Shown: positions 10,502 through 64,000, numbered from the stretch's first letter. The stretch: 64,000 nt of DNA from Oscillospiraceae bacterium (GCA_902799075.1 CADBYZ010000004.1:1294-65293), one strand, 5' to 3'. The notes: generated from the sequence alone by a model not told the origin. Numbers and translations: made by a program.

Positions 10502-11116
10502 ATGCGCATCACATCCCTGAAACAGACCACCACCGAGCATGTGACGGTGGTGCTGGAGGACGAGAGCGAGGTCAAAACCACCCTCGGCACCGTGACCGAG
10601 CTGCGGCTTTTCGCCGGGCGGGAGCTCAGCGAGCAGGATTTGGACATCCTGCGCCGGGAGTCGAAGAAGGCGCTCAGCCGGGAAAAGGCGCTGGAGCTTG
10701 TGTCCCAGCGGCAGATGTCGGCCAGGGAGCTGAATAAAAAGCTGCGCGACAAGGGCGCGGACGAGGAGACTGCCGATTACTGCGTGCAGTGGATCGTGGA
10801 GCGCGGGCTTCTTGACGAGGAGCGCTACGCCGCCGCCGTCGTGCGCCACTATGCCGCGAAGGGCTACGGCGAGGGGCGCGTGCGCCAGGAGCTTATGCGC
10901 CGGGGCGTGCCGCGTGAGCTGTGGGACGACGCCCTCTCCGAGATGCCGGAGGACACATCAAAGCTTGACCGCCTGGTGGCCGCGAAGCTGCGCGATCCGG
11001 AAGACCGGGACGCGGTGCGCAGGCTCTCCGCCTCCCTCTGCCGCCGGGGCTACAGCGGTGAGGAGATCCGTGAGGCGCTTGAACGGGCAAGAGCGTCGTT
11101 TGACTATGAGGAATAA
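10502..11116 (+). CDS. recX: RecX regulatory protein
   Basis: 204-aa helical-repeat protein immediately downstream of recA, with RecX-like size and composition. The call rests mainly on position and general similarity. Confidence 0.75.
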   Translation: MRITSLKQTTTEHVTVVLEDESEVKTTLGTVTELRLFAGRELSEQDLDILRRESKKALSREKALELVSQRQMSARELNKKLRDKGADEETADYCVQWIVERGLLDEERYAAAVVRHYAAKGYGEGRVRQELMRRGVPRELWDDALSEMPEDTSKLDRLVAAKLRDPEDRDAVRRLSASLCRRGYSGEEIREALERARASFDYEE

Positions 11117-11119
11117 GCT

Positions 11120-12451
11120 ATGGAAGCTACGAATAAAAGCTTTGCAATGATTTCCCTGGGCTGTGCCAAGAACCTGGTCAACAGCGAGCAGATGCTGTAT
11201 CTGATGAGCGAAGCGGGCTTCACGCTGGTGCCGGACCCGGACGGGGCCGACCTTGTGATCGTGAACACCTGCGGCTTCATCGACGCGGCGAAATCCGAGG
11301 CCATCGACAACATTCTTGAGATGGCGGAGCTCAAAAAGGCGGGACGCCTCGGCGGCATCATCGTGACGGGGTGCCTGTCCGAGCGCTACAAGGACACGAT
11401 CCTCAACGAGCTGCCCGAGATCGACGCGGTGCTCGGCATCAGTAATTTCAAGGACATTGTCTTTGCCGCCAACGCCGTCATGGAACGGCGCGCGTGCAGC
11501 CTCTTTTCCGACCAGAGCGCGCCGGTGGATGAGATTCCCCGCGTCGTGACCACCGGGCCGGGCTGGGCCTATCTCAGGATCGCGGAGGGCTGCAACAACT
11601 TCTGCGCCTTCTGCGCCATCCCCTTCATCCGGGGCCGTTACCGCTCCAGGAGCATGGAGAATATCCTGGAGGAGGCGCGGGACCTGGCTGCCCACGGGGT
11701 GAAGGAGCTCATCGTCATCGCCCAGGACATCACCCGCTACGGCACCGATCTCTACGGGAAACGCTGTCTTGCGGAGCTGTGCCGGAAGCTCTCGGAAATT
11801 GAGGGCATCGAGTGGCTGCGCCTGCATTACCTGTATGTGGATCAGTTCGACGAGGAGCTGATCGACGAGATTGCGAACAATCCCAGGATCGTCAAGTATC
11901 TGGACATCCCCATCCAGCACATCAACGATCAGATCCTCAGGCGCATGAACCGCCGCGGCACGGGCGCGGATATCCGCAGGCTCTTCAAAACGCTGCGCGA
12001 GCGCGTTCCCGGTCTGGTGCTGCGCACGAGCCTGATCGCGGGCCTCCCCGGCGAGGGGGAAGCCGAATTTGAGGAGCTGTGCGAATTTCTGAGGGAAGCG
12101 CGTATCGAGCGTGTGGGCGTCTTCCCCTTCTCCCCCGAGGAAGGGACCCCCGCCGCGCAGATGGAGCATGCGGACTATGAGGAGGCCCAGCGCCGCGCCG
12201 ACCTGATCCTGGAGCTCCAGGCCCCGATCATGGAGGACTTCTGCCGGAGCTTTGTGGGCAGGACTATCGACGTGCTGTGCGAGGGCTTCGACGAGGAAAG
12301 TCAGAGCTTCTACGGACGCTCCTACGCCGACTCCCCCGACATCGACGGGCAGGTCTTCTTTGACGGCCCCGGCCGCGCGGGCGATATCCAACGTGTCGTG
12401 ATCGACGATACCGACGACGGCCTGCTCTTCGGGCATTTGGAGGAGGAGTGA
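11120..12451 (+). CDS. rimO: ribosomal protein S12 methylthiotransferase
   Basis: N-terminal ISLGCAKNLVNSEQM, radical-SAM motif CNNFCAFCAIP, C-terminal TRAM region. Confidence 0.88.
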   Translation: MEATNKSFAMISLGCAKNLVNSEQMLYLMSEAGFTLVPDPDGADLVIVNTCGFIDAAKSEAIDNILEMAELKKAGRLGGIIVTGCLSERYKDTILNELPEIDAVLGISNFKDIVFAANAVMERRACSLFSDQSAPVDEIPRVVTTGPGWAYLRIAEGCNNFCAFCAIPFIRGRYRSRSMENILEEARDLAAHGVKELIVIAQDITRYGTDLYGKRCLAELCRKLSEIEGIEWLRLHYLYVDQFDEELIDEIANNPRIVKYLDIPIQHINDQILRRMNRRGTGADIRRLFKTLRERVPGLVLRTSLIAGLPGEGEAEFEELCEFLREARIERVGVFPFSPEEGTPAAQMEHADYEEAQRRADLILELQAPIMEDFCRSFVGRTIDVLCEGFDEESQSFYGRSYADSPDIDGQVFFDGPGRAGDIQRVVIDDTDDGLLFGHLEEE

Positions 12452-12453
12452 GC

Positions 12454-12975
12454 ATGAACACTACTGCCAACAAGATCACCATTGCGCGTATCGCGCTGAT
12501 CCCGGTATTCCTGGTGCTTTGCTACACCGGTCACCGCATCGCCGCCACCGTCGTGTTTATCCTCGCCAGTCTCTCGGACCTGCTGGACGGCTACATCGCC
12601 CGGCACTACAACCAGGTCTCCAACTTCGGCAAGTTCATGGACCCGCTGGCGGACAAAATGCTGGTGCTGTCGGCCATGTGCTTTCTGGCGGAGAAGGGGC
12701 AGATGCCCGGCTGGGTCGTGGCCGTGGTGCTGTTCCGGGAATTTGCGGTGTCCGGCCTGCGCCTTGTCGCCGCCGAGCGCCAGCGCGTCATCGCCGCCGC
12801 CTGGTCCGGCAAGGTCAAGACCACCTGTACGATGGTGGGCCTGTGCTTCGTGCTGGTGTTCACCCGGTATCCCTGGCTGAACATGCTCGTCTCCGCCGTG
12901 ATTCTGATCACCACGATCTACTCCGGCGTCGAGTATTTTATGAAGAACAAGGACGTGTTTCAAGACGCGGACTGA
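12454..12975 (+). CDS. pgsA: CDP-diacylglycerol--glycerol-3-phosphate 3-phosphatidyltransferase
   Basis: CDP-alcohol motif DLLDGYIARHYNQVSNFGKFMDPLADK. I prefer the ATG at 12454 (GGAGGAGGAG upstream) over the track GTG at 12448. Confidence 0.9.
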   Translation: MNTTANKITIARIALIPVFLVLCYTGHRIAATVVFILASLSDLLDGYIARHYNQVSNFGKFMDPLADKMLVLSAMCFLAEKGQMPGWVVAVVLFREFAVSGLRLVAAERQRVIAAAWSGKVKTTCTMVGLCFVLVFTRYPWLNMLVSAVILITTIYSGVEYFMKNKDVFQDAD

Positions 12976-13007
12976 CGCTGTACGCTATTTCTTCGTCGTA
13001 TTTATTG

Positions 13008-13170
13008 TTTCACCGTAGGGGCCGACGCCCTCGGCGGCCCGCACGGTACAGTCTCAAATTGTGTGGAAATCCCTAGTGGTCATTTATATACAGTTTGTTT
13101 TTGCTGTTGATAAGTGCGTTTATTGTGATTTCACCGTCGGGCCGCCGAGGGCGTCGGCCCCTACAATGTC
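13008..13170. mobile_element. family B MITE-like element, copy B1 (about 150 bp, 27-bp perfect terminal inverted repeats)
   Basis: GTAGGGGCCGACGCCCTCGGCGGCCCG at 13015-13041, with its exact reverse complement at 13138-13164. The interior is AT-rich. A second copy lies at 31645-31800. Confidence 0.6.
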
Positions 13171-13258
13171 ACCAATTCCGGACACAAAAACGCCGCTTCT
13201 CTTTAGTCTCTTGCATTATTCGGCTTTTCTATCCTGTTCATAAAAGGAGTTAATATCA

Positions 13259-14710
13259 ATGATCCTGTACAATTCCGCCTCGCGTAAACGGGAAGAGTTT
13301 GTTCCCAACGACCCCAGCCTTGTCAAGATGTACACCTGCGGCCCGACGGTCTACCACTTCGCGCACATCGGCAACCTCCGCTCCTACATCATGGAGGACA
13401 TCCTGGAGAAGTACCTGCGCTACACGGGCTACAACGTCAAGCGCGTCATGAACATCACCGATGTCGGCCACCTCACCTCCGACGCCGACGAGGGCGAGGA
13501 CAAGATGCTCAAGGGCGCAAAGCGCGAGCACAAGTCCGTCATGGAGATCGCGCAGTACTATACCGACGCTTTCTTCGACGACTGCGCAAAGCTCAACATC
13601 AAGACCCCCGATGTGGTGGAGCCCGCCACGCACTGCATCGACGATTACATCAAGATCATCTCGAAGCTCATGGACACGGGCTACGCCTACTTTGCCGGCG
13701 GCAACGTGTACTTTGATACCTCGAAGCTCGAGCGCTACTACGTCTTTAACGACTTCAAAGAGGAGGACCTGAACGTCGGCGTGCGCGAGGGCGTGGAAGA
13801 AGATACCAACAAGCGCAACAAGAACGATTTCGTTCTCTGGTTCACCAAGTCCAAGTTCGAGGACCAGGCCCTCAAGTGGGACTCCCCCTGGGGCGTGGGC
13901 TACCCCGGCTGGCACATCGAGTGCTCCGGCATCTCCATGAAGCACCTGGGTGAGAACATCGACATCCACTGCGGCGGCATCGACAACGCCTTCCCCCACC
14001 ACACCAATGAAATTGCCCAGTCCGAAGCCTATCTTGGCCATCCCTGGGTCAAATACTGGATGCATGTCCTCCACCTGAACACCACCTCCGGCAAAATGAG
14101 CAAGTCCAGCGGCGAGTTTCTGACCGTCTCTCTGCTCGAGCAGAAGGGCTACGATCCCCTCGCCTACCGCTTCTTCTGCCTGCAGAGCCACTACCGCAAG
14201 AGTCTGGTGTTCACCTGGGAAAACCTCGACAACGCCCAGGGCGCGTACCTGAAGCTCATCGCCCGCATCGCCGCCCTCAAACCCGAGGACGGGGAAGTCG
14301 ACGAGGCCGCCTTCAACGAGCTGGACGCGAAGTTCCGCGCCGCCATGGACAACGACCTCAACTCCTCCCTCGCCGTCACGGCGCTCTACGACGTGCTCAA
14401 GGCCAGGACCAATGACGCGACCAAGCTCAAGGCCATCGGCGCGTTCGACACTGTGCTGGGTCTGAGCCTGCTTGAAAAGGCAAGTGTGAAGCGCGAGGAG
14501 CTCAAGCGCCAGCAGGTCGCGGCGGGACAGTTCACCGTCGTGTCCGAATCCGGCGAAGAAGACCCCGAGATCGAGGCAAAGATCATGGCCCGCCAGGACG
14601 CGAAGAAGGCCAAGAATTTCGCCGAGGCCGACCGTATCCGCGACGAGCTCAAGGCCGCCGGGATCGAGGTCACCGACATCCCCCACGGCGCAAAGTGGAA
14701 GAGAATGTAA
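13259..14710 (+). CDS. cysS: cysteine--tRNA ligase
   Basis: HIGH motif (HIGNLRSY), KMSKS motif (KMSKSSG), class I CysRS layout. Confidence 0.97.
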   Translation: MILYNSASRKREEFVPNDPSLVKMYTCGPTVYHFAHIGNLRSYIMEDILEKYLRYTGYNVKRVMNITDVGHLTSDADEGEDKMLKGAKREHKSVMEIAQYYTDAFFDDCAKLNIKTPDVVEPATHCIDDYIKIISKLMDTGYAYFAGGNVYFDTSKLERYYVFNDFKEEDLNVGVREGVEEDTNKRNKNDFVLWFTKSKFEDQALKWDSPWGVGYPGWHIECSGISMKHLGENIDIHCGGIDNAFPHHTNEIAQSEAYLGHPWVKYWMHVLHLNTTSGKMSKSSGEFLTVSLLEQKGYDPLAYRFFCLQSHYRKSLVFTWENLDNAQGAYLKLIARIAALKPEDGEVDEAAFNELDAKFRAAMDNDLNSSLAVTALYDVLKARTNDATKLKAIGAFDTVLGLSLLEKASVKREELKRQQVAAGQFTVVSESGEEDPEIEAKIMARQDAKKAKNFAEADRIRDELKAAGIEVTDIPHGAKWKRM

Positions 14711-14725
14711 GACGATAAGACGCAG

Positions 14726-14765
14726 ACAGCGCCGCACAATTCGTGCGGCGCTGTTGTTGTTTTTA
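14726..14765. terminator. bidirectional intrinsic terminator (cysS / phosphoesterase gene)
   Basis: Stem ACAGCGCCGCAC-aattc-GTGCGGCGCTGT followed by TGTTGTTGTTTTT. Sits between convergent genes. Confidence 0.85.
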
Positions 14766-16586
14766 TCCCTGTATAGACGTGAGCGGGATCTGTCTGAGAT
14801 CCCAGGTGCCGTCCGGGTGGATGGTGATGAGCTCCGCGCCGCGCTGGGCGGTGTCGTTTTCGATGCCCGGCATGGCGAGATAGTCGATGCTCATGCCGTA
14901 GGTCAGGCGGATGCCCTTGTATTCGAGCGACATGTTGTTGTAGTGGTCATGTCCGCAGAAGACGCCCGTGGTGCTGCCGAGCTCGAGCATGCGGTCAAAG
15001 AGCCTGCTCGGGTAGTCGGAGCAGCAGACCTTGTCGATCATCTGCTCCCCGTTTTCGCCGAAGAAGTATTTGACCTCGGGGCTCCCCGCCATGTAGAGCT
15101 CATAGGCGGTGCGGTACTGCTGGAGGGGGATGTGGAAGAAAACCATGGAGGGCACCGTTCTGCCCGCCTCTGCGTTCAGGCGCTCCACCTGGGCGGCGTA
15201 CCAGTCCACCTGGTCGTCGTGGATGTAGTCATAGACGTTGATGCCCTCGCCGGTGTAGGCGTTGGAGTCAAGCAGGAAGAGGCCGGTGTTGAGCGTGCCG
15301 TCGGCGTTTCTGAGCTCGATGAGCTGGTTGTTGCGCCCGGTGATCTCCGGCTGGATATAGGGGTAGAGCAGCAGGCCCGAGGTCTTGAAGGACAGGGACA
15401 TGTACACATCGTTGAGGGATTCCCGGTCCATGGAGGCGATGCTCTCGGTGTCGTGGTTGCCGTAGGTGAAGGCCCAGGGTACGCCCACATTGCGCATGAA
15501 GGCCGCAAACTGGTTGACCGGGGCGGAGTTATTGAGGGACATGGACATGATGCCGAGCGGGAAGCAGAGGTCGCCCGTCACGATGACAAGGTCAGGCTTT
15601 GCGTAATTGATCTCATCGTAGCAGGCCTGCAGGGCTTTGATGTCCTTGTGGTAAGAATAGAGAGAGTTGCCGAGGTGGATGTCCGTCAGGTGGAGGATCT
15701 TAAAATCCCCGTCCCGGGCGGTGATGGTATAGACGCCGCTTTCGTCGTCGTATTCGATGGGACAGGGGCTGCGGGTGACGACGGGGACGGAATTGATGTA
15801 GGGCTGGGTGTACCAGGTCTCCCGGCGCAGGACGACAAAGAGCAGGACAAGGATCGCCGCCGCGGTCCAGATGGCGACGGAGAGGCGGTTGAATACGATG
15901 TTCCGCCGCGCGATATTCTTTCTGAGCGTGACATCGTAAGCGAACACCAGCAGCAGGAAGGCGATGCCCGCGGCGATCATGGCGTTGGCCGGATATTGGA
16001 GCTTATCCCGGAAGATGACCGTGGCGGCGAGGACAAGGGCCCAGTACAGCAGGGAGATCAGCGCCATGCCCCAGAGGTGGCGCTTCGTGAGGTTCTCGTT
16101 CCGGCTGCCGACCCAGCGGTTCAAAAGGCGCAGGCCGAGGCTGTTTTTGATCAGCAGATAAAGCGGCAGCTGGATGAGCAGGATGTTCGACGCCATGTTC
16201 TCCCCCAGCTCCGCCGCCTTGGAATTGCCGAAGAAATAGAAGCTCAGCTCCGCCCCGATAAAGACCGCGAAGGCCGCGACAAACAGCGCGATGGCATGGA
16301 GCAGGCGCTTTAGGTACTGGTCGTGCAGGGCGCAGAGAAACTCCTTTTCCTCCTCGCTCACGTCCGGGCTTTCAGGCAGGTCCTTTTTGAGCCACCGGTA
16401 AATCAGCATCGCGGCGACGAAGAGCGCCAGACCATAGAGTATGTTGAAGGGCAGCTCCCTGTTGCGGTGCACGGCGTTGAACACGGTCCAGACGAGCTCG
16501 CTCACCGCACCCGTCATCAGCAGGGCGATGGCGTAGATCTTGAGCTGGGCTGAGCGGATTGTTTTTTTGACGGTTTTTTGTTCCAT
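14763..16586 (-). CDS. membrane-anchored metallophosphoesterase (calcineurin-like)
   Basis: Multi-TM N-terminal half. Catalytic motifs ILHLTDIHLG, VTGDL, GNHDTE, FFHIPL and GHDHYNN. Start is uncertain: ATG at 16586 or the track TTG at 16607. Confidence 0.85.
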   Translation of the reverse strand: MEQKTVKKTIRSAQLKIYAIALLMTGAVSELVWTVFNAVHRNRELPFNILYGLALFVAAMLIYRWLKKDLPESPDVSEEEKEFLCALHDQYLKRLLHAIALFVAAFAVFIGAELSFYFFGNSKAAELGENMASNILLIQLPLYLLIKNSLGLRLLNRWVGSRNENLTKRHLWGMALISLLYWALVLAATVIFRDKLQYPANAMIAAGIAFLLLVFAYDVTLRKNIARRNIVFNRLSVAIWTAAAILVLLFVVLRRETWYTQPYINSVPVVTRSPCPIEYDDESGVYTITARDGDFKILHLTDIHLGNSLYSYHKDIKALQACYDEINYAKPDLVIVTGDLCFPLGIMSMSLNNSAPVNQFAAFMRNVGVPWAFTYGNHDTESIASMDRESLNDVYMSLSFKTSGLLLYPYIQPEITGRNNQLIELRNADGTLNTGLFLLDSNAYTGEGINVYDYIHDDQVDWYAAQVERLNAEAGRTVPSMVFFHIPLQQYRTAYELYMAGSPEVKYFFGENGEQMIDKVCCSDYPSRLFDRMLELGSTTGVFCGHDHYNNMSLEYKGIRLTYGMSIDYLAMPGIENDTAQRGAELITIHPDGTWDLRQIPLTSIQG

Positions 16587-16620
16587 GGCGCTTTTTTCTC
16601 TCTTCAATGGTTTTGATATG

Positions 16621-17976
16621 TTATCCCACCCCGTAGGGATAGGTGGAGCTGCGGTCGAGCGGGTAATACTTATAATTGCTGTTGACCGGGCGCTCGCCGC
16701 GGCCGAGGGCCCAGTCGATCATGCCGTATTCGATGGCGTCGGTGATGATGCCGTAGTGCCCGCCGCCCGCACACTCGACGACGGTCACGTTGTTGCCATG
16801 GGCGACCATGAGCTCGATGGCCCGCTTGTTCATGCCCACGCCGCCGAACTCGAACAGGTAAAAGCGCGTGCCCGCTTTCGCCGTGCTGTCGCACTGCTCG
16901 GGGCTCATGACATGGCTCTCCACCTCCCAGTGGAGCCCAGCGTCAAAGGTCATGACCGTTTTGGCGGCAAGGCCGTGGTTTTCCCAGAGGATCGCCGCGC
17001 CCTGGCAGGCGGTGTAGGCCCCCATGCTGGCCCCGCAGAGCACCAGATCGTGCAGGAAGACGTTGTTCTCGATCGCCGCCTGCTCGAGGGCCCGGTAAGA
17101 GTCCTCCACCTTGTCCGCCACATGGCCGTAGCCGTTTGCGTAGCACAGGAGCATGATGGCGTTCGGCGGGTCGGGGGCGTAGACATACTCGGTGAGGTAG
17201 TTGTTGGCAAGCGCCTCATCGTAGCCGCCGGGGTAGAAGATCAGGCAGGAAGTCTCCGGCCCCGCGTCCTTGGGGACGTAGATGAGGCCGAGGCGGTGGT
17301 AGTACAAAATCCCCTTTCCGAGGTCGGTGCCCGCGTACTCGGAGTAGTTCACCGGCTCGTCGGTCCCCTCCGCCATGGCGACGATGCGGTCGAGACAGCG
17401 CTGCTTGAGCTTCAGGCTGTCGCGGTAGTCCCCCAGCTCGTTCCAGCGCCGCACGGCCTCGTCCAGGCGGCAGGCGTAGGTCGCCTCGAGCGCCCGGTCA
17501 TAGAGCTTATCCCGGCACGCTTTCATAAGTGTCTCCGCCTCCGGCCAGTCCGTCAGCGTGCCGAGCAGGGAGATGGCCTCGGACAGACGGTCAGCGTCCG
17601 CGTAGGACGAAGCCCTTCGGAAGTCACACTCGAGCGCGCGTGTCGGGGCGTCTTCAAAGTCCCCGAGGGCGAGGAAGGCGTCCTTCGCGTCCAGGTACTC
17701 CCCCGCCGTAAGCTGTGCCTCGGCGGCGGCGTAGGCGTTTTTCATCTCCTGCTGTACGCGCAGAGCTTCACATTCGGCGGCCTCCGTCTCCATGCCGAGG
17801 GAGAGATACAGATCCCGCGCCTCATAGTAGTTCCCCGCGGCCTGATATGCTGCGGCTCGGCTTACGGCCTCGTTATGCTGCTTTTCCTTCCACACACGCC
17901 AGCCCACCAGGCCGAGCAGCGCTGCCGCCAGCAGCACCAGCACGACGGCCAGAACACGTTTTGTCCTTCTCCTCAC
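16621..17976 (-). CDS. hypothetical membrane-anchored protein, helical-repeat N-half plus putative alpha/beta-hydrolase C-half
   Basis: N-terminal TM helix, repeated GDY.DA-type helical motifs, and a GxSxG nucleophile-elbow candidate LCGASMGAY. The likely start is the GTG at 17976, 7 nt after GGAGG. Confidence 0.55.
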   Translation of the reverse strand: MRRRTKRVLAVVLVLLAAALLGLVGWRVWKEKQHNEAVSRAAAYQAAGNYYEARDLYLSLGMETEAAECEALRVQQEMKNAYAAAEAQLTAGEYLDAKDAFLALGDFEDAPTRALECDFRRASSYADADRLSEAISLLGTLTDWPEAETLMKACRDKLYDRALEATYACRLDEAVRRWNELGDYRDSLKLKQRCLDRIVAMAEGTDEPVNYSEYAGTDLGKGILYYHRLGLIYVPKDAGPETSCLIFYPGGYDEALANNYLTEYVYAPDPPNAIMLLCYANGYGHVADKVEDSYRALEQAAIENNVFLHDLVLCGASMGAYTACQGAAILWENHGLAAKTVMTFDAGLHWEVESHVMSPEQCDSTAKAGTRFYLFEFGGVGMNKRAIELMVAHGNNVTVVECAGGGHYGIITDAIEYGMIDWALGRGERPVNSNYKYYPLDRSSTYPYGVG

Positions 17977-18573: not shown

Positions 18574-19812
18574 TCAGTCTCTTCTGAACAGGTCGCGGGT
18601 GTAAACCTTGTCCTCACAGTCCTTCAGCTGCTCATCAAAGCGGTTGGCGAGGATCACGTCGGACCCGGCCTTGAACTTTTCGATATCGTTGACCACCAGG
18701 GAGCCGAAGAAGGTCTGGCCGTCCTCTAAGGTGGGCTCGTAGATGATGACGGTCGCGCCCTTGGCCTTGATGCGCTTCATGACGCCCTGGATGGAGGACT
18801 GGCGGAAGTTGTCGCTGTTGGATTTCATGGTGAGCCGGTAGACGCCGACGGTGATGGGCCGCTCCTTCTGCGCGTTCCACATGCTGCTGGCGGTGTAGTA
18901 GCCCGCCTTTTCCAGCACACGGTCGGCGATGAAGTCCTTGCGGGTGCGGTTGGAATCCACGATGGCCTGGATGAGGTTTTCCGGCACATCCTCATAGTTT
19001 GCCAGCAGCTGCTTGGTGTCCTTGGGCAGGCAGTAGCCGCCGTAGCCGAAGGAGGGGTTGTTGTAGTGGCTGCCGATGCGGGGATCGAGGCACACGCCGT
19101 CGATGATCTCACGGGTATTGAGGCCCTTCATCTCGGCATAGGTGTCAAGCTCGTTGAAGTAGCTGACACGCAGGGCGAGATAGGTGTTGGCGAAGAGCTT
19201 GACGGCCTCGGCCTCGGTAAAGCCCATGAAGCGCACGTCTATGTCCTTCTTCTCCGCGCCCTCGACCAGAAGCTCCGCAAAGCGCTCGGCCACGGGGCGG
19301 GAGGCCTCGTCGCAGCCGACGATGACGCGGCTCGGCCAGAGGTTATCGTAGAGGGCCCTGGACTCGCGCAGAAACTCGGGGCTGAAGAGGATGCGGTCGG
19401 TGCGGTACTTTTCGCGCACGGAAGCCGTGTAGCCGACGGGGATGGTGCTCTTGATGACCATGTGGGCGTCGGGATTGTGGGCCATGGTCTGCTCGATGGC
19501 GTCCTCCACGCTGGAGGTGTCGAAGTAGTTTTTCTGGCTGTCGTAGTTTGTGGGGGTGGCGATCACGACCAGCTCCGCCGAGGCGTAGGCCGCGGCCTTG
19601 TCGGTGGTGGTGTGGAGGTTCAGTACCCGCTTGCCCGCCTTCGCCTCCGCCAGGAAGCGCTCGATCTCGTCGTCCTGGATGGGGCTTTCCCAGTTGTTGA
19701 GCTTCTCGGCCTTGGCCCCGGTGGTGGTGATGGCGGTGACCTCATGGTGCTGGGCGAGCAGCACGGCAAGGCTCAGGCCCACATAACCCACGCCCGCAAC
19801 GGTGATTTTCAT
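18574..19812 (-). CDS. ugd: UDP-glucose 6-dehydrogenase
   Basis: N-terminal Rossmann motif [13 protein letters not shown] and catalytic region [10 protein letters not shown]. Confidence 0.92.
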
Positions 19813-19842
19813 AGCGTTATCCTTTCTCCGGCGCCTGGCCGG

Positions 19843-20910
19843 TCAGCACTTGTAATAGTCCTTGTACCATTCGGCGAAGGCGCGCAGGCCCTCGCGGATG
19901 GTGATGCGCGGGGTGAAGCCGTAGTCCCGCTCGAGGGCTGCGGAGTCGGCGTAGGTCACGGGCACGTCGCCCGGCTGCATGCCCACAAGCTCGCGGTGGG
20001 CTTCAAAGTCGTAATCTGCGGGCAGGACCCCGGCGCGCACCAGCTCCTCCTGGAGCGTTGCGACAAAGTCCAGCAGGTTTTCCGGCTGTCCGCCGCCGAT
20101 GTTGTAGACCGCGTAGGGCGGCAGCGGCAGGCCGTCCTCGCCGGTCTGTTTTTCGGGTGCGCCCTTTATTACGCGCACGATGCCCTCCACAATGTCGTCG
20201 ATGTAGGTAAAGTCCCGCATCATATTGCCGAAGTTGAAGATGCGGATGATCTGCCCGGCGGCGAGGCGTTTGGTGGCGCTGTAGTAGAACATGTCCGGGC
20301 GTCCCGCGGGGCCGTAGACCGTGAAGAAGCGCAGGCCCGTGGAGGGGATGTTGTAGAGCTTCGAGTAGGCGTGGGCCAAAAGCTCGTTTGATTTCTTGGT
20401 GGCGGCGTAGAGGGAGACGGGGTTGTCCACCTTGTCGTCGGTGGAAAACGGCACCTTCTTGTTTCCGCCGTAGACCGAGGAGCTGGAGGCGTAGACCAGG
20501 TGCTCGACCGGGTAACGGCGGCAGGCTTCGAGAAGATTATAGAAGCCGATGATATTCGAGTCGATGTACACGTCCGGGTGGTCGATGGAATAGCGCACGC
20601 CTGCCTGGGCGGCAAGGTTCACCACGACATCAAAGCAGTATTTTTCAAAGAGGCTGTTCACCAGCGCCTTGTCGGCGATGGAGCCGCGGATAAATTCATA
20701 GCGCACTTTCGACGCGGCGGCGGCCTGCTCGATCTGCTTTAAGCGCCACTCCTTGAGGCTGACCTCGTAGTAGTCGTTCATGTTGTCGAGGGACACCACC
20801 GTGCCGCTTTTGAGCTCTTTCAGCAGGCGGATGACCAGATAGGTCCCGATAAAGCCGGGCGCGCCGGTGACGAGGATGGTCTTGCCGTTGAGCTCAACGG
20901 GTGTTTTCAT
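19843..20910 (-). CDS. NAD-dependent epimerase, UDP-glucuronate 4-epimerase-like
   Basis: ILVTGAPGFIGTY, YASSSSVYG, YAATKK (SDR Ser/Tyr/Lys). AAGGAGA RBS. Paired with ugd. Confidence 0.8.
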   Translation of the reverse strand: MKTPVELNGKTILVTGAPGFIGTYLVIRLLKELKSGTVVSLDNMNDYYEVSLKEWRLKQIEQAAAASKVRYEFIRGSIADKALVNSLFEKYCFDVVVNLAAQAGVRYSIDHPDVYIDSNIIGFYNLLEACRRYPVEHLVYASSSSVYGGNKKVPFSTDDKVDNPVSLYAATKKSNELLAHAYSKLYNIPSTGLRFFTVYGPAGRPDMFYYSATKRLAAGQIIRIFNFGNMMRDFTYIDDIVEGIVRVIKGAPEKQTGEDGLPLPPYAVYNIGGGQPENLLDFVATLQEELVRAGVLPADYDFEAHRELVGMQPGDVPVTYADSAALERDYGFTPRITIREGLRAFAEWYKDYYKC

Positions 20911-55620: not shown

Positions 55621-56493
55621 ATGAATCAGTATCTTGACATTTCCCCCGAAGTGAAGGCCGCGCTCATCTCCCACGGCATGCCCTACCCCAAGAACGTGGA
55701 AACCGCGCTTTTAGTCGAGCAGACCATCCGCGATAACGGCGCAACTCCCGCCACCATCGCCGTCATCGGCGGCAGGCTCAAGGCGGGCCTTACCCGTGAG
55801 GAGATCGAATACCTCGGCAAGACCGGGCGCGGCGTTGCCAAGGCCAGCCGCCGCGATCTGCCCGCGCTGGTAGCGAGAAAGGCCGACGGCGCCACCACCG
55901 TCACCACCACCATGATCATCGCCCACATGGCGGGCATCAAAATCTTCGCCACCGGCGGCATCGGTGGTGTGCACCGCGGCGCGGAAACGACCATGGACAT
56001 CTCCGCCGACCTCGAGGAGCTTGCCCAGACGCCGGTCATGGTGGTTTGCGCGGGCGCAAAGTCCATCCTCGATCTCGGCCTCACGCTCGAGTACCTCGAG
56101 ACCAAGGGTGTGCCCGTGATCGGCTACGGCACCGACGAGCTGCCCGCCTTCTATACCCGCAAGTCGGGCTTTGGGGTCGATTACCGCGTGGACTCCCCCG
56201 AGGAGCTGGCCGCCATGTTCCGCGCCCAGCGCGGTCTCGGCTACAAGGGCGGCATGCTGGTCACGAATCCCATCCCCGAGGAGTACGCCATGGACAAGGC
56301 GACCATCGACGCCGCCATCGAGCAGGCGCTCTCTGAGGCCAAGGCCCAGGGCATCCACGGCAAGGAGACCACCCCCTTCTTACTTGCCAAGGTCGTGGAG
56401 CTCACCGGCGGGGACAGCCTCGAGTCCAACATCAAGCTGGTGCTCAATAACGCGAAGGTCGCAGCCCAGACCGCAAAGCTGCTGGGAGAATAA
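55621..56493 (+). CDS. psuG: pseudouridine-5'-phosphate glycosidase, N-terminally shortened
   Basis: [39 protein letters not shown]. The usual segment preceding ISHGMP (..[10 protein letters not shown]) is absent. Confidence 0.85.
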
Positions 56494-56596
56494 GCTGCTT
56501 TATCGCTCAGAGGCTGTTGCCTGCGTAATGCGCAGGTCATGTCTTTTGAGCAACAACACTATAAGAATCCAAGTAATACTTTTTCTGGAGCTTGCT

Positions 56597-58657: not shown

Positions 58658-60112
58658 ATGGATAAAAAGCAATCCGTCATCACCAATTTCATATGGCGGC
58701 TCATGGAGCGCGGCGGCACCTATGTGGTAAACTTCGCGGTGTCCGTGGTGCTGGCGCGGCTGCTGGCGCCGCAGCTCTACGGCAGCATTGCCCTGGTCAC
58801 GGCCATCACCTCCATCTTGCAGGTGTTCGTGGACAGCGGCATGGCAAACTCCCTCATCCAGAAAAAGGACACGGACGATCTGGACTACTCCTCCGTCTTC
58901 TATTTTAACCTCGTTTTCTGTCTGGTGCTGTACCTGGGGCTGTTCCTCGCGGCCCCGCTCATCGGGCGCATTTATAAAGACATGTCGCTGGTGCCCGTGG
59001 TGCGGGTGCTGGGGCTTACGATCGTGGTGTCCGGCGTCAAGAACGTGCAGCAGGCGTATGTGGCCAAGACCATGCAGTTTCGCCGCTTCTTCTTCGCCAC
59101 CCTCGGCGGCACGCTCTTCTCCGCCGTGGTGGGCATCACGCTCGCCTGCCTCGGCTACGGCGTGTGGGCGCTGGTGTTCCAGCAGCTCGTGAACGTCACG
59201 GTCAACACCGCCATCCTCTGGCTCACGGTGGGCTGGCGGCCCAAGCCCGTCTTCTCCTGGCAGAGACTCGGCGGGCTCATCTCCTACGGCTGGAAGCTGC
59301 TGATTTCCCAGCTTCTGGACACGGCCTATCTGAAGCTCTATCAGTTCATCATCGGCCTGCGCTACTCCACCGCCGATCTCGCCTACTATAACCGGGCCGA
59401 GCAGTTTCCGAACCTCATCATGGAAAACGTGAACGCCTCCCTCGACAGCGTGCTGCTGCCGGTCCTGTCTTCGGAGCAGGACGACATCGAGCGCGTGAGG
59501 GAGATGACGCGGCGGGCCATCCGGGTGAGCACCTATGTGCTGATGCCGCTGATGGCGGGACTCGCCGTGTGCGCAGAGCCGCTGGTGCGCCTGCTGCTGA
59601 CGGAGAAGTGGATGCCAAGCGTTCCGTACATGCAGCTGTTTTGCCTGTACTACGCCCTCTGGCCCCTGCACACGGCAAACCTCAACGCCATCAAGGCCAC
59701 CGGGCACAGCGGCATCTTCCTGTATCTCGAGATCATCAAGAAGGTGCTGGAGACCGCCGTGCTGCTCGTCACGATGCGCTACGGCGTCATGGCGATCATG
59801 CTGGGGCTTTTGTTCAACGGCTTTGCGTCCGTCATTATCAACGCCTGGCCCAACGGAAAGCTCCTGCATTATACGATCCCCCAGCAGCTCAGGGACGCCG
59901 CCCCGGCGATGCTCCTGTCGCTTGCGATGGGCGCGCTTATCCTGCCCGTGACCTGGACGGGGCTTTCCGATTTCGTGAAGCTTCTCATCATGGTGCCGGC
60001 GGGCGCGGCCCTCTATGTGGGCGGCTCGATCCTCTTCAAGGTGGACAGCTTCCGCTACATCTGGGAGATCGTACAGAAAATCCTGCACCGCGGAAAGGAA
60101 GAAACCGCATGA
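58658..60112 (+). CDS. Wzx-type polysaccharide flippase (MOP superfamily)
   Basis: 484 aa, about 12-14 TM helices. The N-terminus FIWRLMERGGTYVVNFAVSVVLARLLAPQLYG is typical of the polysacc_synt family. Confidence 0.85.
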   Translation: MDKKQSVITNFIWRLMERGGTYVVNFAVSVVLARLLAPQLYGSIALVTAITSILQVFVDSGMANSLIQKKDTDDLDYSSVFYFNLVFCLVLYLGLFLAAPLIGRIYKDMSLVPVVRVLGLTIVVSGVKNVQQAYVAKTMQFRRFFFATLGGTLFSAVVGITLACLGYGVWALVFQQLVNVTVNTAILWLTVGWRPKPVFSWQRLGGLISYGWKLLISQLLDTAYLKLYQFIIGLRYSTADLAYYNRAEQFPNLIMENVNASLDSVLLPVLSSEQDDIERVREMTRRAIRVSTYVLMPLMAGLAVCAEPLVRLLLTEKWMPSVPYMQLFCLYYALWPLHTANLNAIKATGHSGIFLYLEIIKKVLETAVLLVTMRYGVMAIMLGLLFNGFASVIINAWPNGKLLHYTIPQQLRDAAPAMLLSLAMGALILPVTWTGLSDFVKLLIMVPAGAALYVGGSILFKVDSFRYIWEIVQKILHRGKEETA

Positions 60113-61311
60113 ATCAGAAAAAACTGCTGCTGCTCGGCGGGGCGCACTATCTGCGCCCGGTGATCCGGGAGGCCCACGCGCTGGGGCTGCATGTCATCAC
60201 CTGCGACTACCTGCCGGACAACGCCGCCCACAAGCTGAGCGATCAATACCTCAATATCAGCATTCTCGACAAGGACGCCGTTTTGGATGCGGCGCGGGAG
60301 CTTAAGATCGACGGTGTGATGAGCTTTGCCTGCGATCCCGGCGTCGTGACGGCTGCATACGTTGCGGAGAAGCTGGGCCTGCCCTCCCCCGCCTCCTTTG
60401 AATCCACCTGCATTTTGCAGGACAAGGGGCGCTTTCGCGCCTTCCTGCGGGACAACGGCTTCACCGTCCCCTGGGCCCACAGCTATACCGACAGGCAGGC
60501 GGCGCTCGCTGACGCCAAAAACTTCACCTGGCCCTGTATCGTCAAGCCCGTGGACTGCGCGGGCAGCAAGGGCGTCAGGCGCGTGGACAGCTTCTTTGAG
60601 CTGGAGGCCGCCATCGACTATGCCCTCGACTTTTCCCACAGTGGGGCCTTCATCATTGAGCAGTTCATCACCCAGCGGGGCTATTCCTCGGACACGGACT
60701 GCTTCGTGAAGGACGGGGTCCTCTGCTACTGCTCCTTTGATGAGCAGCGCTTCGACCGCGAGGCCGAAAACCCCTATACCCCGGCGGCCTACTCCTGGCC
60801 CTCCGGCATGCCGCAGGAGATCCAGGCGGAGCTCAGATCCGAGCTGCAGCGGCTCATGACCCTGCTCGGCATCACGACCGGCGTCTTCAACATTGAGACC
60901 CGCCAGGGCACCGACGGCCGGGCCTACATCATGGAGTGCACCCCCCGCGGCGGCGGCAACCGTCTGAGCGAGGTGCTGGAAATGGCGACGGGCACAAAAC
61001 TCGTGCAGAACGCGGTGCGGGCCGCGGTCGGCCTGCCGGTGGACGACATGTCCGACCCCGTCTACAAAGGCCACTGGGCCGAGATCATCCTGCACGGCAG
61101 GCAGGCCGGGATCTATCAGTCCGTGCAGATCGACCCCGCGGTCATGCCCTATGTGGTACAGGAGGATTACTGGGTCGCGCCCGGCGAGGAGATCGAGGGC
61201 TTTTCCGGCGCCAACAAGGCCATCGGCACGCTGGTGCTGAACTTCCCCGACCGTGAGACCCTGGAGAAGTATATGTCCGATGATTCCTGGTATCAGGTCA
61301 TTGTCTCATAA
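60109..61311 (+). CDS. ATP-grasp domain ligase 1
   Basis: Its ATG overlaps the wzx TGA (ATGA). KKLLLLGG pre-ATP-grasp domain, WPCIVKPVDCAGSKGV, YIMECTPRGGG. Confidence 0.8.
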   Translation: MNQKKLLLLGGAHYLRPVIREAHALGLHVITCDYLPDNAAHKLSDQYLNISILDKDAVLDAARELKIDGVMSFACDPGVVTAAYVAEKLGLPSPASFESTCILQDKGRFRAFLRDNGFTVPWAHSYTDRQAALADAKNFTWPCIVKPVDCAGSKGVRRVDSFFELEAAIDYALDFSHSGAFIIEQFITQRGYSSDTDCFVKDGVLCYCSFDEQRFDREAENPYTPAAYSWPSGMPQEIQAELRSELQRLMTLLGITTGVFNIETRQGTDGRAYIMECTPRGGGNRLSEVLEMATGTKLVQNAVRAAVGLPVDDMSDPVYKGHWAEIILHGRQAGIYQSVQIDPAVMPYVVQEDYWVAPGEEIEGFSGANKAIGTLVLNFPDRETLEKYMSDDSWYQVIVS

Positions 61312-61341
61312 AATGTACAGAGAACGGAGAAACACGAACAC

Positions 61342-62622
61342 ATGAAGAAACTCTTGATGCTCGGCACCAGCTACGCTTCGCTGCTCATGCTGGACTACGC
61401 GAAGAAGCAGGGCGTGTACACCATTGTCACCGACTATCTGGAGCCCGAGCACTCCCCCGGCAAGCTCAAAGCGGATGAATACTGGATGATCAACACCGGC
61501 GATCTGGACGCGCTGGAAAAAAAGTGCCGCGAGGAAGGCGTGAACGCCGTGGTGTGCGGCATCAGCGAATTTAACCTGGAAATGTGTATGGCGCTGTGCG
61601 CGCGGCTGGGCCTGCCCTGCTACTGCACGCCGGAGGCCTGGCACTACTCCCGCGACAAGGTGGACTACAAGGCCCTGGCGACCAAACTCGGCGCGCCGCT
61701 TGCCGACGACTATTTTCTCTCCGATCCCCCCACGCGCGAGGAGCTGGACAAGGTGAAATACCCCGTGGTTGTAAAGCCCATTGATCTCAGCTGCAACCGC
61801 GGCATCAGCTATTGTCATGACGAGAAGGAGATGCTGGCGGCCTGCGACTACGCGCGCTCCATGTCCAAAAGCCGCAAGCTCGTGGTGGAGCGCATGCTGC
61901 ACGGCGAGGAGTGGTACGGCACCTACGCCCTGGCAGACGGCAAGGTGAGCCTGCTGGGCCTTTGCGCCATGTATGCCCAGCCGGGCTACCCCAAGTTCTG
62001 CTACTCCATCACCTCCACCCTCTCCAACCACGTTGAGGACTTCTGCCGGGACATCAATCCCGCCATCGAGAAGGTCCTGCAGGGCGTGGGCTGCAGGGAG
62101 GGCTACGCCTGGACCCAGGCCATGCTGGACGAGGACGGGCACTTCTACATCATCGAGATGGGCTACCGTCTCGACGGCGACATGATGTTCGTCCCCTTCA
62201 AGGACCTGCTGGGCTTCGACACCATCGCCTGGATCGTGGACTACGCCCTCGGGAAAAAGAACGATCCCGCTGAGCTGCCCCATTCCCAGGAGAAGGCTTT
62301 CAGGCGCGTCGCCACAAGCTATATGCTCTGGACCAACGACAAGGGCGGCACCATCGGCTCCATCGAGGGTCTGGACGAGGTGCGAAGCTTCCCCGGCGTG
62401 ACGGTGGATTCCCTCGCCTGCGTTGGCGACCCGATCCGGCCTTACGGCCCGCTCGGCTGCATTCTCTTCACCACCGACAATGCCGAGGAGATGTTCGACC
62501 TTGTCCGGCGCATCAACGACACCGTGCGCATCAAGAACACCGACGGCGACGATGTGCTCATCTATTACGACGATTTTGACTACCTCAGAGGCGTGTATCA
62601 GGAGGGCCTCGAGGGGAAATAA
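61342..62622 (+). CDS. ATP-grasp domain ligase 2
   Basis: KKLLMLGTS, YPVVVKPIDLSCNRGI, FYIIEMGYRLDGD. Confidence 0.8.
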   Translation: MKKLLMLGTSYASLLMLDYAKKQGVYTIVTDYLEPEHSPGKLKADEYWMINTGDLDALEKKCREEGVNAVVCGISEFNLEMCMALCARLGLPCYCTPEAWHYSRDKVDYKALATKLGAPLADDYFLSDPPTREELDKVKYPVVVKPIDLSCNRGISYCHDEKEMLAACDYARSMSKSRKLVVERMLHGEEWYGTYALADGKVSLLGLCAMYAQPGYPKFCYSITSTLSNHVEDFCRDINPAIEKVLQGVGCREGYAWTQAMLDEDGHFYIIEMGYRLDGDMMFVPFKDLLGFDTIAWIVDYALGKKNDPAELPHSQEKAFRRVATSYMLWTNDKGGTIGSIEGLDEVRSFPGVTVDSLACVGDPIRPYGPLGCILFTTDNAEEMFDLVRRINDTVRIKNTDGDDVLIYYDDFDYLRGVYQEGLEGK

Positions 62623-62642
62623 AATTTTAAGGAGTGTCCGCT

Positions 62643-63245
62643 ATGTTGAGAAAATGGAAAGTGATCGTGCCCCTGGCGCTGACCGCCGCGGGCGCTGTGG
62701 CTTCGGGGCTTGCGGTGCTGATGCAGAAGCTGCCGAAGGACGAGGCCCCCGTTTCTGAGCCTGCCCCCGCGGCGAGGCCCGCCAATCTCCGTACCGGCGT
62801 CTACAGCTTTATCTCCGGCTATCAGGATGCCGCCACCGTGGAGCTGAGCATGGACTACGACCCCGAGAAGTTCAGCTTTGCCATCGTGGAGGATGAGTTT
62901 TTGAACTACTCCAGCGCCTCCCATGTTGCCATCGTCTACGGCGAGGAGTTCAACCTCCAGCTTGAGTACGCGGCCTATTACAGCGGCGAGGACTTTGCCG
63001 CCCACAGCGCCGCCCTGCGGGAAAAGTACAGTGCCTGCAACGCGTACAGCTGCGGTGCGCTGGACGGGCTTTGGGTGCTCGACGGGGACAATGTCGCCAT
63101 GCACTTCCCCATCCCGGACGATCAGCACAGCTATCTGCTGGTCACGGTGCAGAAGACGCCCGGGTACGACGACGAGGTCACGACCCTGCCGGACTACGCG
63201 CCGCTCAGGGAGCTGCTGTCTACGGTGAAATTTACGAGGATCTGA
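62643..63245 (+). CDS. hypothetical membrane-anchored/exported protein
   Basis: ATG at 62643, 8 nt after AAGGAG. N-terminal TM helix (VIVPLALTAAGAVASGLAVLM), then a domain of about 150 aa from an unrecognised family. Confidence 0.55.
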   Translation: MLRKWKVIVPLALTAAGAVASGLAVLMQKLPKDEAPVSEPAPAARPANLRTGVYSFISGYQDAATVELSMDYDPEKFSFAIVEDEFLNYSSASHVAIVYGEEFNLQLEYAAYYSGEDFAAHSAALREKYSACNAYSCGALDGLWVLDGDNVAMHFPIPDDQHSYLLVTVQKTPGYDDEVTTLPDYAPLRELLSTVKFTRI

Positions 63246-63293
63246 CGAAATAACAGCGCGGGACCGCCCCTGATCTGTTCATCCGCAAAAAGG

Positions 63294-63341
63294 CCCCGGT
63301 GATACGCCATATCGCACGTTTTCACCGGGGATTTCATTTTC
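63294..63341 (+). terminator. hairpin terminator candidate
   Basis: CCCCGGTGA..(19-nt loop)..TCACCGGGG followed by ATTTCATTTTC. Confidence 0.5.
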
Positions 63342-63380
63342 ATTGCAGGAACCTGTATTATAATGTACTGCATCCATGCC

Positions 63381-63416
63381 AAAACAGAACACAGACCCTG
63401 CTTTCGCAGGGCCTGT
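63381..63416 (-). terminator. intrinsic terminator of the gene entering from the right edge
   Basis: On the minus strand: CAGGCCCTGC-gaaa-GCAGGGTCTG followed by TGTTCTGTTTTGG. Confidence 0.65.
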
Positions 63417-63468
63417 GCGTGGTTCACTGATTGTCAGGATCAGTGATTAGATTCTGTTGCGTGATTGA

Positions 63469-64000
63469 TCAGGAAGCAAAGCCCATGGCAACCAGAGCGG
63501 GGTAAGCGTCAATGGCGACATCCCCATTAGCGGTGCTGCCCATGGCGTACTGGCTCCAGGTGGTGGAATCCTTGCCAGGGATGAAGAGCTGGCCGCCATT
63601 GAGGAAATCTTCGAAGCCGAACTCGTCGTACTTGTCCATGCCCCAATCGACCATGTCGTAGTACAGAGTCTCACCGGCGTCGTTAACAGCCTTCTGAGCC
63701 TTCAGAGCAGCGAGACCCCAAACCAGGGACTCGAGGCCCTTCTGAGCCTTGGCGCTGTTGACAGCCTTGGTAGCAGCATCGGAGAAGGCCTTCAGGTACT
63801 TCTCGGGATTGTAGGTGCCGTTGTCAGCATCGTACCAGCCGTTCTTGTTGGAGTCGAGCTCCTTCATGATCTCAGCACCGATGGTCTGCTTGATGAAGAC
63901 TCTGACGTTGTCGACGAGATCGTCGTGGTAGATGGTGGTGCCAGCGATCTTGACGCTGTCAACGCCGTCGAACATGTTCTTGGCAAGGCCGTCGGCCAGA
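63469..64000 (-). CDS. hypothetical protein, C-terminal part (5' end outside window)
   Basis: The frame stays open to the window edge beyond the track start at 63975. Codon usage resembles the highly expressed BMP gene. No family recognised. Confidence 0.45.
   Translation of the reverse strand, partial: LADGLAKNMFDGVDSVKIAGTTIYHDDLVDNVRVFIKQTIGAEIMKELDSNKNGWYDADNGTYNPEKYLKAFSDAATKAVNSAKAQKGLESLVWGLAALKAQKAVNDAGETLYYDMVDWGMDKYDEFGFEDFLNGGQLFIPGKDSTTWSQYAMGSTANGDVAIDAYPALVAMGFAS

Follow-up and report, generated by a model that had tools for sequence, protein, structure and literature searches.

Two ATP-grasp ligases beside a Wzx flippase in an Oscillospiraceae genome: a candidate system for amide decoration of an amino sugar in a surface glycan

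What do two ATP-grasp ligases join together when they are encoded directly behind a Wzx-type flippase? The question is raised by a locus in an Oscillospiraceae metagenome-assembled genome (MAG; GCA_902799075.1) of 2.4 Mb, 116 contigs and 76% completeness. The stretch analysed, called the window below, is the 64,000 nucleotides at C4:1294-65293. The locus encodes a glycosyltransferase with two domains (GT2-GT2), the flippase (Wzx), the ligases (AG1 and AG2) and a 200-aa protein (Table 1). The answer favoured here, with moderate confidence, is that AG1 and AG2 are a pair of amide ligases that decorate a 4-amino-4,6-dideoxyhexose of a surface glycan, with the sugar transferred by GT2-GT2 and flipped by Wzx. 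Amide decoration of the glycan is well supported, and the amine that the ligases acylate is most likely a deoxythymidine diphosphate (dTDP)-4-amino-4,6-dideoxyhexose. In this reading, the block in the window is a trimmed form of a cassette that moves horizontally between gut and rumen bacteria and whose full form is GT2-Wzx-AG1-P315-second ligase-DegT-RmlA-RmlB, where P315 is a family of proteins of about 315 aa. ATP-grasp amide chemistry is known in outline; neither the ligases of this widespread cassette nor P315 have a functional name in the libraries and sources searched. Most surface glycans of anaerobes from the rumen and gut are still uncharted; they influence how phages, the immune system and lectins recognise the cells.

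The ligases and their conserved partners

The translations of AG1 and AG2 are free of internal stops. Both are above the gathering threshold of Pfam ATP-grasp_4 (48.6 bits for AG1 and 28.6 bits for AG2; cut-off 27). AG1 also matches ATPgrasp_N (31.8 bits; cut-off 27) and has no match to LAL_C2. In AG2, the LAL_C2 match is below threshold (22.5 bits; cut-off 29.4). A first-pass annotation, made from the sequence of the window, had listed three ATP-grasp motifs for these ligases, and all are present in both proteins. The N-terminal motifs are KKLLLLGG (AG1) and KKLLMLG (AG2), the central strand motifs are VKPVDCAGSKGV (AG1) and VKPIDLSCNRGI (AG2), and the C-terminal motifs are ME..PRGGGN (AG1) and IEMGYRLDGD (AG2). 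In the family alignments, AG1 retains the invariant residues K106, K146, E184 and R280 and the near-invariant E276. The conserved Lys (VKP), hinge Glu, Mg-binding Glu and J-loop Arg of the ATP-grasp superfamily are present, with the AG2 motifs read directly. The annotation had also called the two ligases distant relatives, which agrees with 24% identity over 290 residues (E = 2e-17). The junctions it described are those found: the AG1 ATG (60109-60111) overlaps the wzx TGA (60110-60112) in an ATGA, and AG2 follows AG1 after a 30-nt spacer, with a GGAG 5' of its start.

Of the relatives with a solved structure, the best are the structural-genomics 'PurD-like' protein 4DIM (E = 1e-21) and BL00235, an L-amino-acid ligase (LAL; PDB 3VOT; E = 1.4e-16 for AG1 and 4.6e-9 for AG2). 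The NCBIfam models for BacD, DdaF and LdmS give 17-21 bits against cut-offs of 475-850. By homology, AG1 and AG2 are LAL-like proteins that fall outside any defined LAL equivalog. The NCBIfam models for PurT, PurK, PurD, CarB, Ddl and AccC give 14-51 bits against cut-offs of 243-1027, with top scores of 51 bits for AG1 (PurT, cut-off 339) and 36 bits for AG2. The two proteins are therefore not placed with primary-metabolism enzymes, and the earlier description of them as non-housekeeping carboxylate-amine ligases stands. A graspetide ligase, which would act on a ribosomally made peptide that is modified after translation, was also rejected: no such Pfam or NCBIfam match is listed, although no search was aimed at precursor peptides. 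The sole small neighbour of the ligases is the 200-aa membrane-anchored protein.

The AG1 family contains 525 clusters (50% identity) at E < 1e-30. A tree of ATP-grasp proteins (125 sequences) contains 46 that are nearer AG2 than AG1, and 43 of these form a separate clade. AG1-type ligases are found fused to Wzx (P0123), to a protein of about 315 aa (P0148) and to GNAT domains, and in tandem with a second ATP-grasp (P0127, P0152 and P0250).

AG1 orthologues at 56% identity or higher are present in at least 80 genomes from several phyla. These were collected from species-representative genomes with a 10-sequence AG1 alignment as the query, and the 80 loci come from Oscillospiraceae, Lachnospiraceae, Acutalibacteraceae, Muribaculaceae, Bacteroides, Prevotella, Victivallales and Synergistaceae. 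Neighbours were counted by tblastn, and the counts are lower bounds because many contigs end early. A DesI-like DegT aminotransferase is present within 10 kb in 56 of the 80 loci. P315 is present in 43, RmlB in 28, RmlA in 26 and Ugd in only 5. Unbiased clustering of all neighbouring open reading frames (ORFs) gives an identical ranking of partners. It adds Bac_transf, EpsG, GT4, a 'sugar-transfer associated' ATP-grasp, LysR, DctM/CitMHS transporters and PrpD.

The GT2-Wzx-AG1 order is kept across phyla. The arrangement GT2-Wzx-AG1-P315-ligase-DegT-RmlA-RmlB is found in loci L085 and L105, and the same cassette genes occur in other orders in L068, L072, L106 and L109. A full-length AG1 orthologue (56-63% identity) is encoded in seven of 36 same-genus genomes; in one more, a fragment lies at a contig end. 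In all seven, a single GT2 is followed by Wzx and AG1, and in two of them the block again lies directly after psuG. The genes 3' of AG1 in these genomes encode P315 and a DegT aminotransferase, joined in some cases by a GNAT or by a spermine-synthase-like membrane protein.

A second ligase at least 68% identical to AG2 is present in only 11 of the 80 loci. The remaining second ligases are 22-32% identical to AG2, and most still fall within the AG2 clade of the tree. In every context examined, AG2 orthologues (56-94% identity) adjoin an AG1-clade ATP-grasp ligase (34-88% identical to AG1). The AG2 orthologues of other lineages (56-74% identity), including one in a Prevotella brevis record, always have DegT nearby, and two of the lineages also have P315. 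The gene directly after the AG2 orthologue (56-75% identity) encodes, in most lineages, a BCCT-family (betaine/carnitine/choline-type) membrane protein. L044 and L047 contain a shorter, 387-aa relative.

GT2-GT2 contains two Glycos_transf_2 domains (Pfam, E = 1.4e-34) and no transmembrane segment. The domains are TuaG/EpsE-like by NCBIfam, below the cut-offs. A homologous GT2 is present in about 53 of the 80 AG1 loci. GT2-GT2 is predicted to transfer the decorated sugar, and possibly also a second sugar, to a lipid-linked glycan. The fused form is restricted to the sub-lineage of the window, and same-genus relatives (L018-L024) contain a single GT2 of about 330 aa. L116 (3331-6757) and L117 contain two separate GT2 genes, one on either side of Wzx.

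Wzx has the features of a Wzx (MOP) flippase (Polysacc_synt_3, E = 5.6e-94; at least nine hydrophobic spans) and scores under the cut-offs of specific NCBIfam flippase equivalogs. It is present in 62 of the 80 AG1 loci; an AG1 ORF was called in 71 loci, and in 31 of these Wzx lies immediately 5' of AG1. The natural Wzx-AG1 fusion P0123 (903 aa; 55% identical to AG1) belongs to one lineage and is found on three contigs from two sources. The ATGA coupling and this fusion hint that ligation takes place at the membrane, on a lipid-linked sugar at the flippase.

The first-pass annotation had predicted a uronic-acid-containing envelope glycan with amide-linked groups. Its general idea is well supported by the GT2-Wzx-AG1 order and the Wzx-AG1 fusion; its uronic-acid specifics are not. 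If those specifics were right, AG1 and/or AG2 would amidate the C6 carboxylate of glucuronic acid (GlcA) or galacturonic acid (GalA) with amino acids or amines, in the manner of the C-terminal domain of Cj1438 in the Campylobacter jejuni HS:2 capsule. A ugd and uridine diphosphate (UDP)-GlcA epimerase pair at 18574-20910 was suggested as the supply. ATP-grasp chemistry permits such a reaction. The gene at 18574-19812 encodes a nucleotide-sugar dehydrogenase of the UDP-glucose 6-dehydrogenase type, as annotated. The gene at 19843-20910 encodes an extended short-chain dehydrogenase/reductase that matches no equivalog cut-off, so the epimerase name is provisional.

In C. jejuni, the DegT-like pyridoxal phosphate (PLP) enzymes Cj1436 and Cj1437 make the amine partners, a role that the canonical DegT and the divergent P315 could fill here. 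The likeness to Cj1438 extends to ATP-grasp amide formation on a surface polysaccharide in the company of GT2 and DegT-like PLP enzymes (PMC11800379). However, Cj1438C is a TupA-like ATP-grasp (PMC11800379), and neither AG1 nor AG2 matches the TupA-like domain (Pfam ATPgrasp_TupA) at E <= 0.01. Cj1438C activates the GlcA carboxylate on the growing chain and uses phosphorylated small amines as partners, and none of these features is found here. Ugd lies on the other strand, 40 kb from the ligases, and is present in 5 of the 80 loci, compared with 56 for DegT and 26-28 for RmlA/B. The enzymes closest to the DegT partner are dTDP-4-keto-6-deoxyglucose aminotransferases, and in this genome its gene lies beside RmlA and RmlB. 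A haloacid dehalogenase-type (HAD) phosphatase was not noted among the recurrent neighbours. Uronate amidation fed by the ugd/epimerase pair is accordingly set aside as unlikely. The conserved partners (DegT, P315 and RmlA/B, with Ugd scarce) therefore indicate that the amine belongs to an amino sugar, which is much likelier than an amino acid attacking a uronate.

The same partners bear on whether AG1 and AG2 make a free dipeptide or short peptide, or modify a peptidoglycan precursor, with the MOP protein exporting the product and the link to glycan genes being incidental. Their best characterised sequence relatives are LALs (3VOT and, more weakly, BacD, DdaF and LdmS), paired ligases occur in single proteins (P0127, P0152 and P0250), and in the nearest relatives the locus adjoins the dcw cell-wall cluster. 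Yet the transporter is a Polysacc_synt_3 Wzx and not a MATE-type exporter. GT2, DegT and RmlA/B travel with AG1 across phyla, as do Bac_transf, EpsG and GT4 in many loci, and the window and L037 have no dcw adjacency. A free peptide is considered very unlikely.

Supply of the aminotransferase

P315 has a GGY.ELE N-terminus, no Pfam match and no BLAST similarity to the neighbouring DegT. Its profile matches to the PDB are marginal (QdtB, E = 0.007). The AlphaFold model of P315 has a predicted local distance difference test score (pLDDT) of 81 and is most similar by Foldseek to ArnB, DesV, WecE and QdtB (E ~1e-11, TM ~0.63). Placed by this predicted fold, P315 is a putative DegT-fold protein. 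Its invariant DNAQA and RK motifs appear to align with the PLP-binding Asp and Lys of DegT enzymes. P315 is confined to AG1-positive genomes (61 relatives). The fusion of P315 to an AG1-type ligase (P0148) has three member sequences and is found on many contigs.

The top match of the DegT partners is the DesI model (dTDP-4-dehydro-6-deoxyglucose aminotransferase), at 264-292 bits. In the nearest relatives of the window (AG2 94% identical), the gene order is psuG-GT2GT2-Wzx-AG1-AG2-DegT-200aa. When L029 is aligned to the window by blastn, L029 9282-10426 is without a counterpart and the alignment picks up at 62641. The window lacks exactly the 1.1-kb DegT gene that is present in L029-L031. This DegT-less arrangement is also found in RUG14036 (L036) and RUG13650 (L037), and RUG13650 also contains the downstream genes of the window. 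An assembly artefact was rejected as the cause of the missing DegT, because the arrangement recurs in these two other MAGs.

The genome of the window contains a DegT on another contig, C53, where the gene order is dTMP kinase-P315-DegT-Glf-RmlA-RmlB-galactokinase-like-nucleotidyltransferase. The C53 RmlA, RmlB and Glf are above their equivalog cut-offs, and the C53 DegT is closest to DesI. Six close genomes were searched for similar pairs. Both sister MAGs without DegT in the locus contain an unlinked P315-DegT pair that is 92-96% identical to the C53 pair. The four genomes with DegT in the locus contain no close P315, and their only close DesI-like DegT is 64-65% identical. The position of that DegT within the locus was confirmed by contig and coordinates in three genomes. 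Each close genome contains exactly one close DesI-like DegT. An aminotransferase encoded inside the locus in some relatives and elsewhere in the genome in others is a clean natural experiment on module rewiring.

The window could instead contain a decaying remnant, in which the aminotransferase has been lost (as have BCCT and P315 relative to distant kin) and the ligases are left without a substrate. DegT is precisely absent relative to L029-L031, and no BCCT homologue was found in the 76%-complete MAG. However, all ORFs are intact, and the five genes are under purifying selection. Their ratio of nonsynonymous to synonymous substitution rates (dN/dS) is 0.07-0.19, including between the window and RUG13650, both of which are DegT-less. 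By gene, dN/dS is 0.07-0.16 for GT2-GT2, 0.12-0.19 for AG1, 0.07-0.13 for AG2 and 0.09-0.18 for the 200-aa protein. The unlinked P315-DegT pair is present in DegT-less genomes and only in those, and the DegT-less arrangement is kept in three independent assemblies. Decay is highly improbable, and pseudogenisation of the locus was rejected on the basis of dN/dS.

Proposed pathway and its precedents

In the proposed pathway, RmlA and RmlB, both encoded on C53, would synthesise dTDP-4-keto-6-deoxyglucose. The DesI-like DegT encoded beside P315 on the same contig may convert this to dTDP-4-amino-4,6-dideoxyhexose. AG1 would activate an amino acid or a small organic acid at its carboxylate, via an acyl phosphate, and ligate it to the sugar amine, and AG2 would add a second residue to the substituent made by AG1. 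Several loci contain AG1 with DegT and without a second ligase, which makes AG1 the likelier of the two to act first on the sugar. The LALs RizA and RizB act in succession and are taken as the model for AG1 followed by AG2. GT2-GT2 may then transfer the decorated sugar to an undecaprenyl-diphosphate-linked glycan that is primed elsewhere, possibly by the Bac_transf proteins of contigs C39 and C69, and Wzx would flip the product. The co-travel of GT2 and Wzx with the ligases is consistent with a self-contained module for making, decorating, transferring and flipping one sugar, which can be plugged into glycan pathways primed elsewhere.

The closest biochemical precedents, by analogy, appear to be Pat/Pyl of Bacillus cereus ATCC 14579 and PglB2 of Neisseria. 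Pat/Pyl belongs to the UDP-yelosamine pathway (Hwang et al. 2014, J Biol Chem 289:35620, cited in PMC11257628). As far as that pathway is summarised in the citing paper, a DegT-type 4-aminotransferase acts with an ATP-grasp enzyme encoded in a glycan locus. The latter couples a carboxylic acid, through an amide, to the 4-amino group of a 6-deoxy amino sugar carried on a nucleotide. In that summary the sugar is UDP-linked, there is one ligase and the acid is 2-oxoglutarate. Here, in contrast, the context is that of a dTDP-sugar (RmlA/B), with two divergent ligases, often P315, and a dedicated GT2 and Wzx. The likeness to Pat/Pyl lies in gene context.

The ATP-grasp domain of PglB2 leads to the sugar glyceramido-acetamido-trideoxyhexose (GATDH; PMC11130364). 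It takes the place of an acetyltransferase and puts a glyceroyl group onto the 4-amino group of a trideoxyhexose, in a lipid-linked pathway with the flippase PglF (PMC11130364). PglB2 is a single ligase fused to a priming transferase and serves protein O-glycosylation with a UDP-sugar (PMC11130364), whereas AG1 is coupled to Wzx. It is likened to AG1 and AG2 by chemistry and context. An ATP-grasp gene partnered by DegT in a glycan locus, as in the Pyl and PglB2 systems, is found in 56 of the 80 loci, and in the genome of the window the DegT is on C53.

Among characterised proteins, the LALs (BL00235/3VOT, BacD/YwfE, RizA/RizB, DdaF and LdmS) are nearest to AG1 and AG2 in sequence and partly resemble them in domain organisation (a pre-ATP-grasp N domain, ATP-grasp_4 and, in AG2, a weak LAL_C2). 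LALs link free amino acids and belong to secondary-metabolite clusters; AG1 and AG2 are far under the equivalog cut-offs and are found in glycan loci. Literature on ATP-grasp enzymes with uronic acid or O-antigen yielded no direct precedent for the AG1/AG2 family.

Natural products of the predicted kind are found in Escherichia coli and Shigella O antigens with amide-linked amino acids (PMC7685785). These include N-acetylglycine in O121, N-acetyl-L-serine in O114 and an N-(3-hydroxybutanoyl)-D-alanyl group on 4-amino-4-deoxyquinovose (Qui4N) in E. coli O123 (PMC7685785). The AG1-GNAT fusions and neighbouring GNAT genes fit N-acetylated aminoacyl groups like those of the O antigens, by analogy.

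The neighbours of the second ligase suggest which acids are used. The BCCT gene after AG2 orthologues of other lineages hints that the carboxylate substrate of AG2 is imported. In L056, L072, L075, L088, L092, L099, L105 and L106, the genes 3' of the second ligase encode LysR, DctM/CitMHS-type carboxylate transporters and a protein of about 97 aa, sometimes also with an MmgE/PrpD dehydratase. This suggests organic acids as acyl donors in these versions of the cassette. A more speculative proposal, held only tentatively, is that AG1, P315 and the second ligase form a portable 'side-chain builder'. It would assemble a two-residue acyl chain, possibly non-proteinogenic or charged, on a lipid-linked 4-amino-6-deoxyhexose at its own flippase. 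One unit may be a betaine-type or organic acid, imported in other lineages via BCCT, CitMHS or DctM. If so, this would be a peptide-like decoration system that is carried on glycans, works without the ribosome and passes between gut bacteria of different phyla.

Several points weigh against the amino-sugar pathway favoured here. It is drawn from gene context throughout. The DegT partners score far under the DesI equivalog cut-off. The ligases in the window are unlinked to DegT, P315 and RmlA/B, and the supply of the aminotransferase in trans is inferred from a complementary distribution in only seven genomes. DegT-family enzymes can use small phosphorylated metabolites, as in Campylobacter Cj1436/Cj1437, and by analogy DegT or P315 could make a free amine. 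The CitMHS/dicarboxylate transporters, PrpD and BCCT of related cassettes may mean that the added groups are not proteinogenic amino acids. The MAG itself is 76% complete.

Assignment of the substrates would make amide-decorated amino sugars predictable from sequence in thousands of genomes and would provide new carboxylate-amine ligases for glycoengineering.

Layout and edges of the locus

The first-pass annotation had described a compact locus of the GT2-GT2 gene, the flippase, the ligases and a downstream exported protein. These form a five-gene operon-like block (Table 1), and the downstream protein is membrane-anchored. From GT2-GT2 to the 200-aa gene, the intergenic gaps are 27 nt, -4 nt (ATGA), 30 nt and 20 nt. 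The hairpin between the end of the block and the convergent gene is likely a bidirectional terminator.

Table 1. Positions of the locus features in the window, and of P315 and BCCT genes in related loci and contigs
Feature	Position	Strand	Basis or remark
psuG	55621-56493	+	gene 5' of the block
Terminator-like hairpin after psuG	56519-56537	+	consensus scan; upstream edge of the operon-like block
GT2-GT2 glycosyltransferase, 674 aa	56606-58630	+	Pfam Glycos_transf_2, twice
Wzx-type MOP flippase, 484 aa	58658-60112	+	Polysacc_synt_3
AG1, ATP-grasp ligase, 400 aa	60109-61311	+	ATP-grasp_4 and ATPgrasp_N
AG2, ATP-grasp ligase, 426 aa	61342-62622	+	ATP-grasp_4; weak LAL_C2
20-nt spacer; site of the DesI-like DegT gene in the nearest relatives	62623-62642		blastn against L029
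200-aa protein, N-terminal membrane anchor	62643-63245	+	start by homology
Strong hairpin, 13-bp stem with 8 GC pairs	63389-63418	-	between operon end and convergent gene
P315 genes	L035 1209-2156 (contig C53); L018-L022; L033 9033-10004		
BCCT genes after AG2 orthologues	L046 12480-14039; L048 12157-13665; L116 9342-10802; L118 9279-10781; L033 11983-13278		

The true start of the 200-aa protein is probably the ATG at 62643, judged by homology. The protein contains one N-terminal transmembrane span and a beta-rich domain. The core of its AlphaFold2 model has a pLDDT of about 90, and the model has no significant fold match in the PDB (best E = 0.027). The protein is lineage-restricted, with homologues in 5 of the 80 AG1 loci and in L029-L031, all of which are close relatives.

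The contig continues for 13.5 kb past the window, and genes in this part were called using third-position GC. The 200-aa gene is followed by a convergent gene for a secreted protein (253 aa) and a 334-aa ORF, neither of which has a Pfam match. Further 3' are genes for DUF1810, a phosphoesterase, aspartate aminotransferase, a PHP protein, rubrerythrin, MgtE and an integrase. These genes are unrelated to the locus, and the block therefore consists of five genes only. No Wzy, chain-length regulator or priming transferase is found in the locus, as the first-pass annotation had noted, and the genes profiled in the 13.5 kb that follow the window on the contig include no recognisable member of these three types. 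Bac_transf priming transferase genes are present elsewhere in the genome, on contigs C39 and C69, and a second Wzx is present on C72.

The right flank of the locus varies. In L029-L031, the locus adjoins the dcw cluster (MurG, FtsW, MraY, a Mur ligase and a penicillin-binding protein). In the window (63245-64000) and in RUG13650, the secreted 253-aa protein and unrelated genes take this position; the L029 counterpart is at 11104-17281. This difference between close relatives indicates a rearrangement breakpoint directly after the 200-aa gene.

The genome of the window contains a second amide-ligase module on contig C29 (L028 9766-14535, - strand). It encodes a DegT (406 aa), a GT2 (317 aa), two EamA/SMR-like membrane proteins (115 and 122 aa) that recall ArnE/ArnF, and an ATP-grasp_4 ligase (414 aa). 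It looks like an Arn-like system for amino-sugar decoration of a lipid carrier with an added ligase.

The closest public records to the window are rumen 'Ruminococcaceae/Oscillospiraceae' and 'Candidatus Limivicinus' MAGs. Sampled contigs of genomes labelled as the same genus range from about 47% to 65% G+C, which is unusually broad for a single genus.

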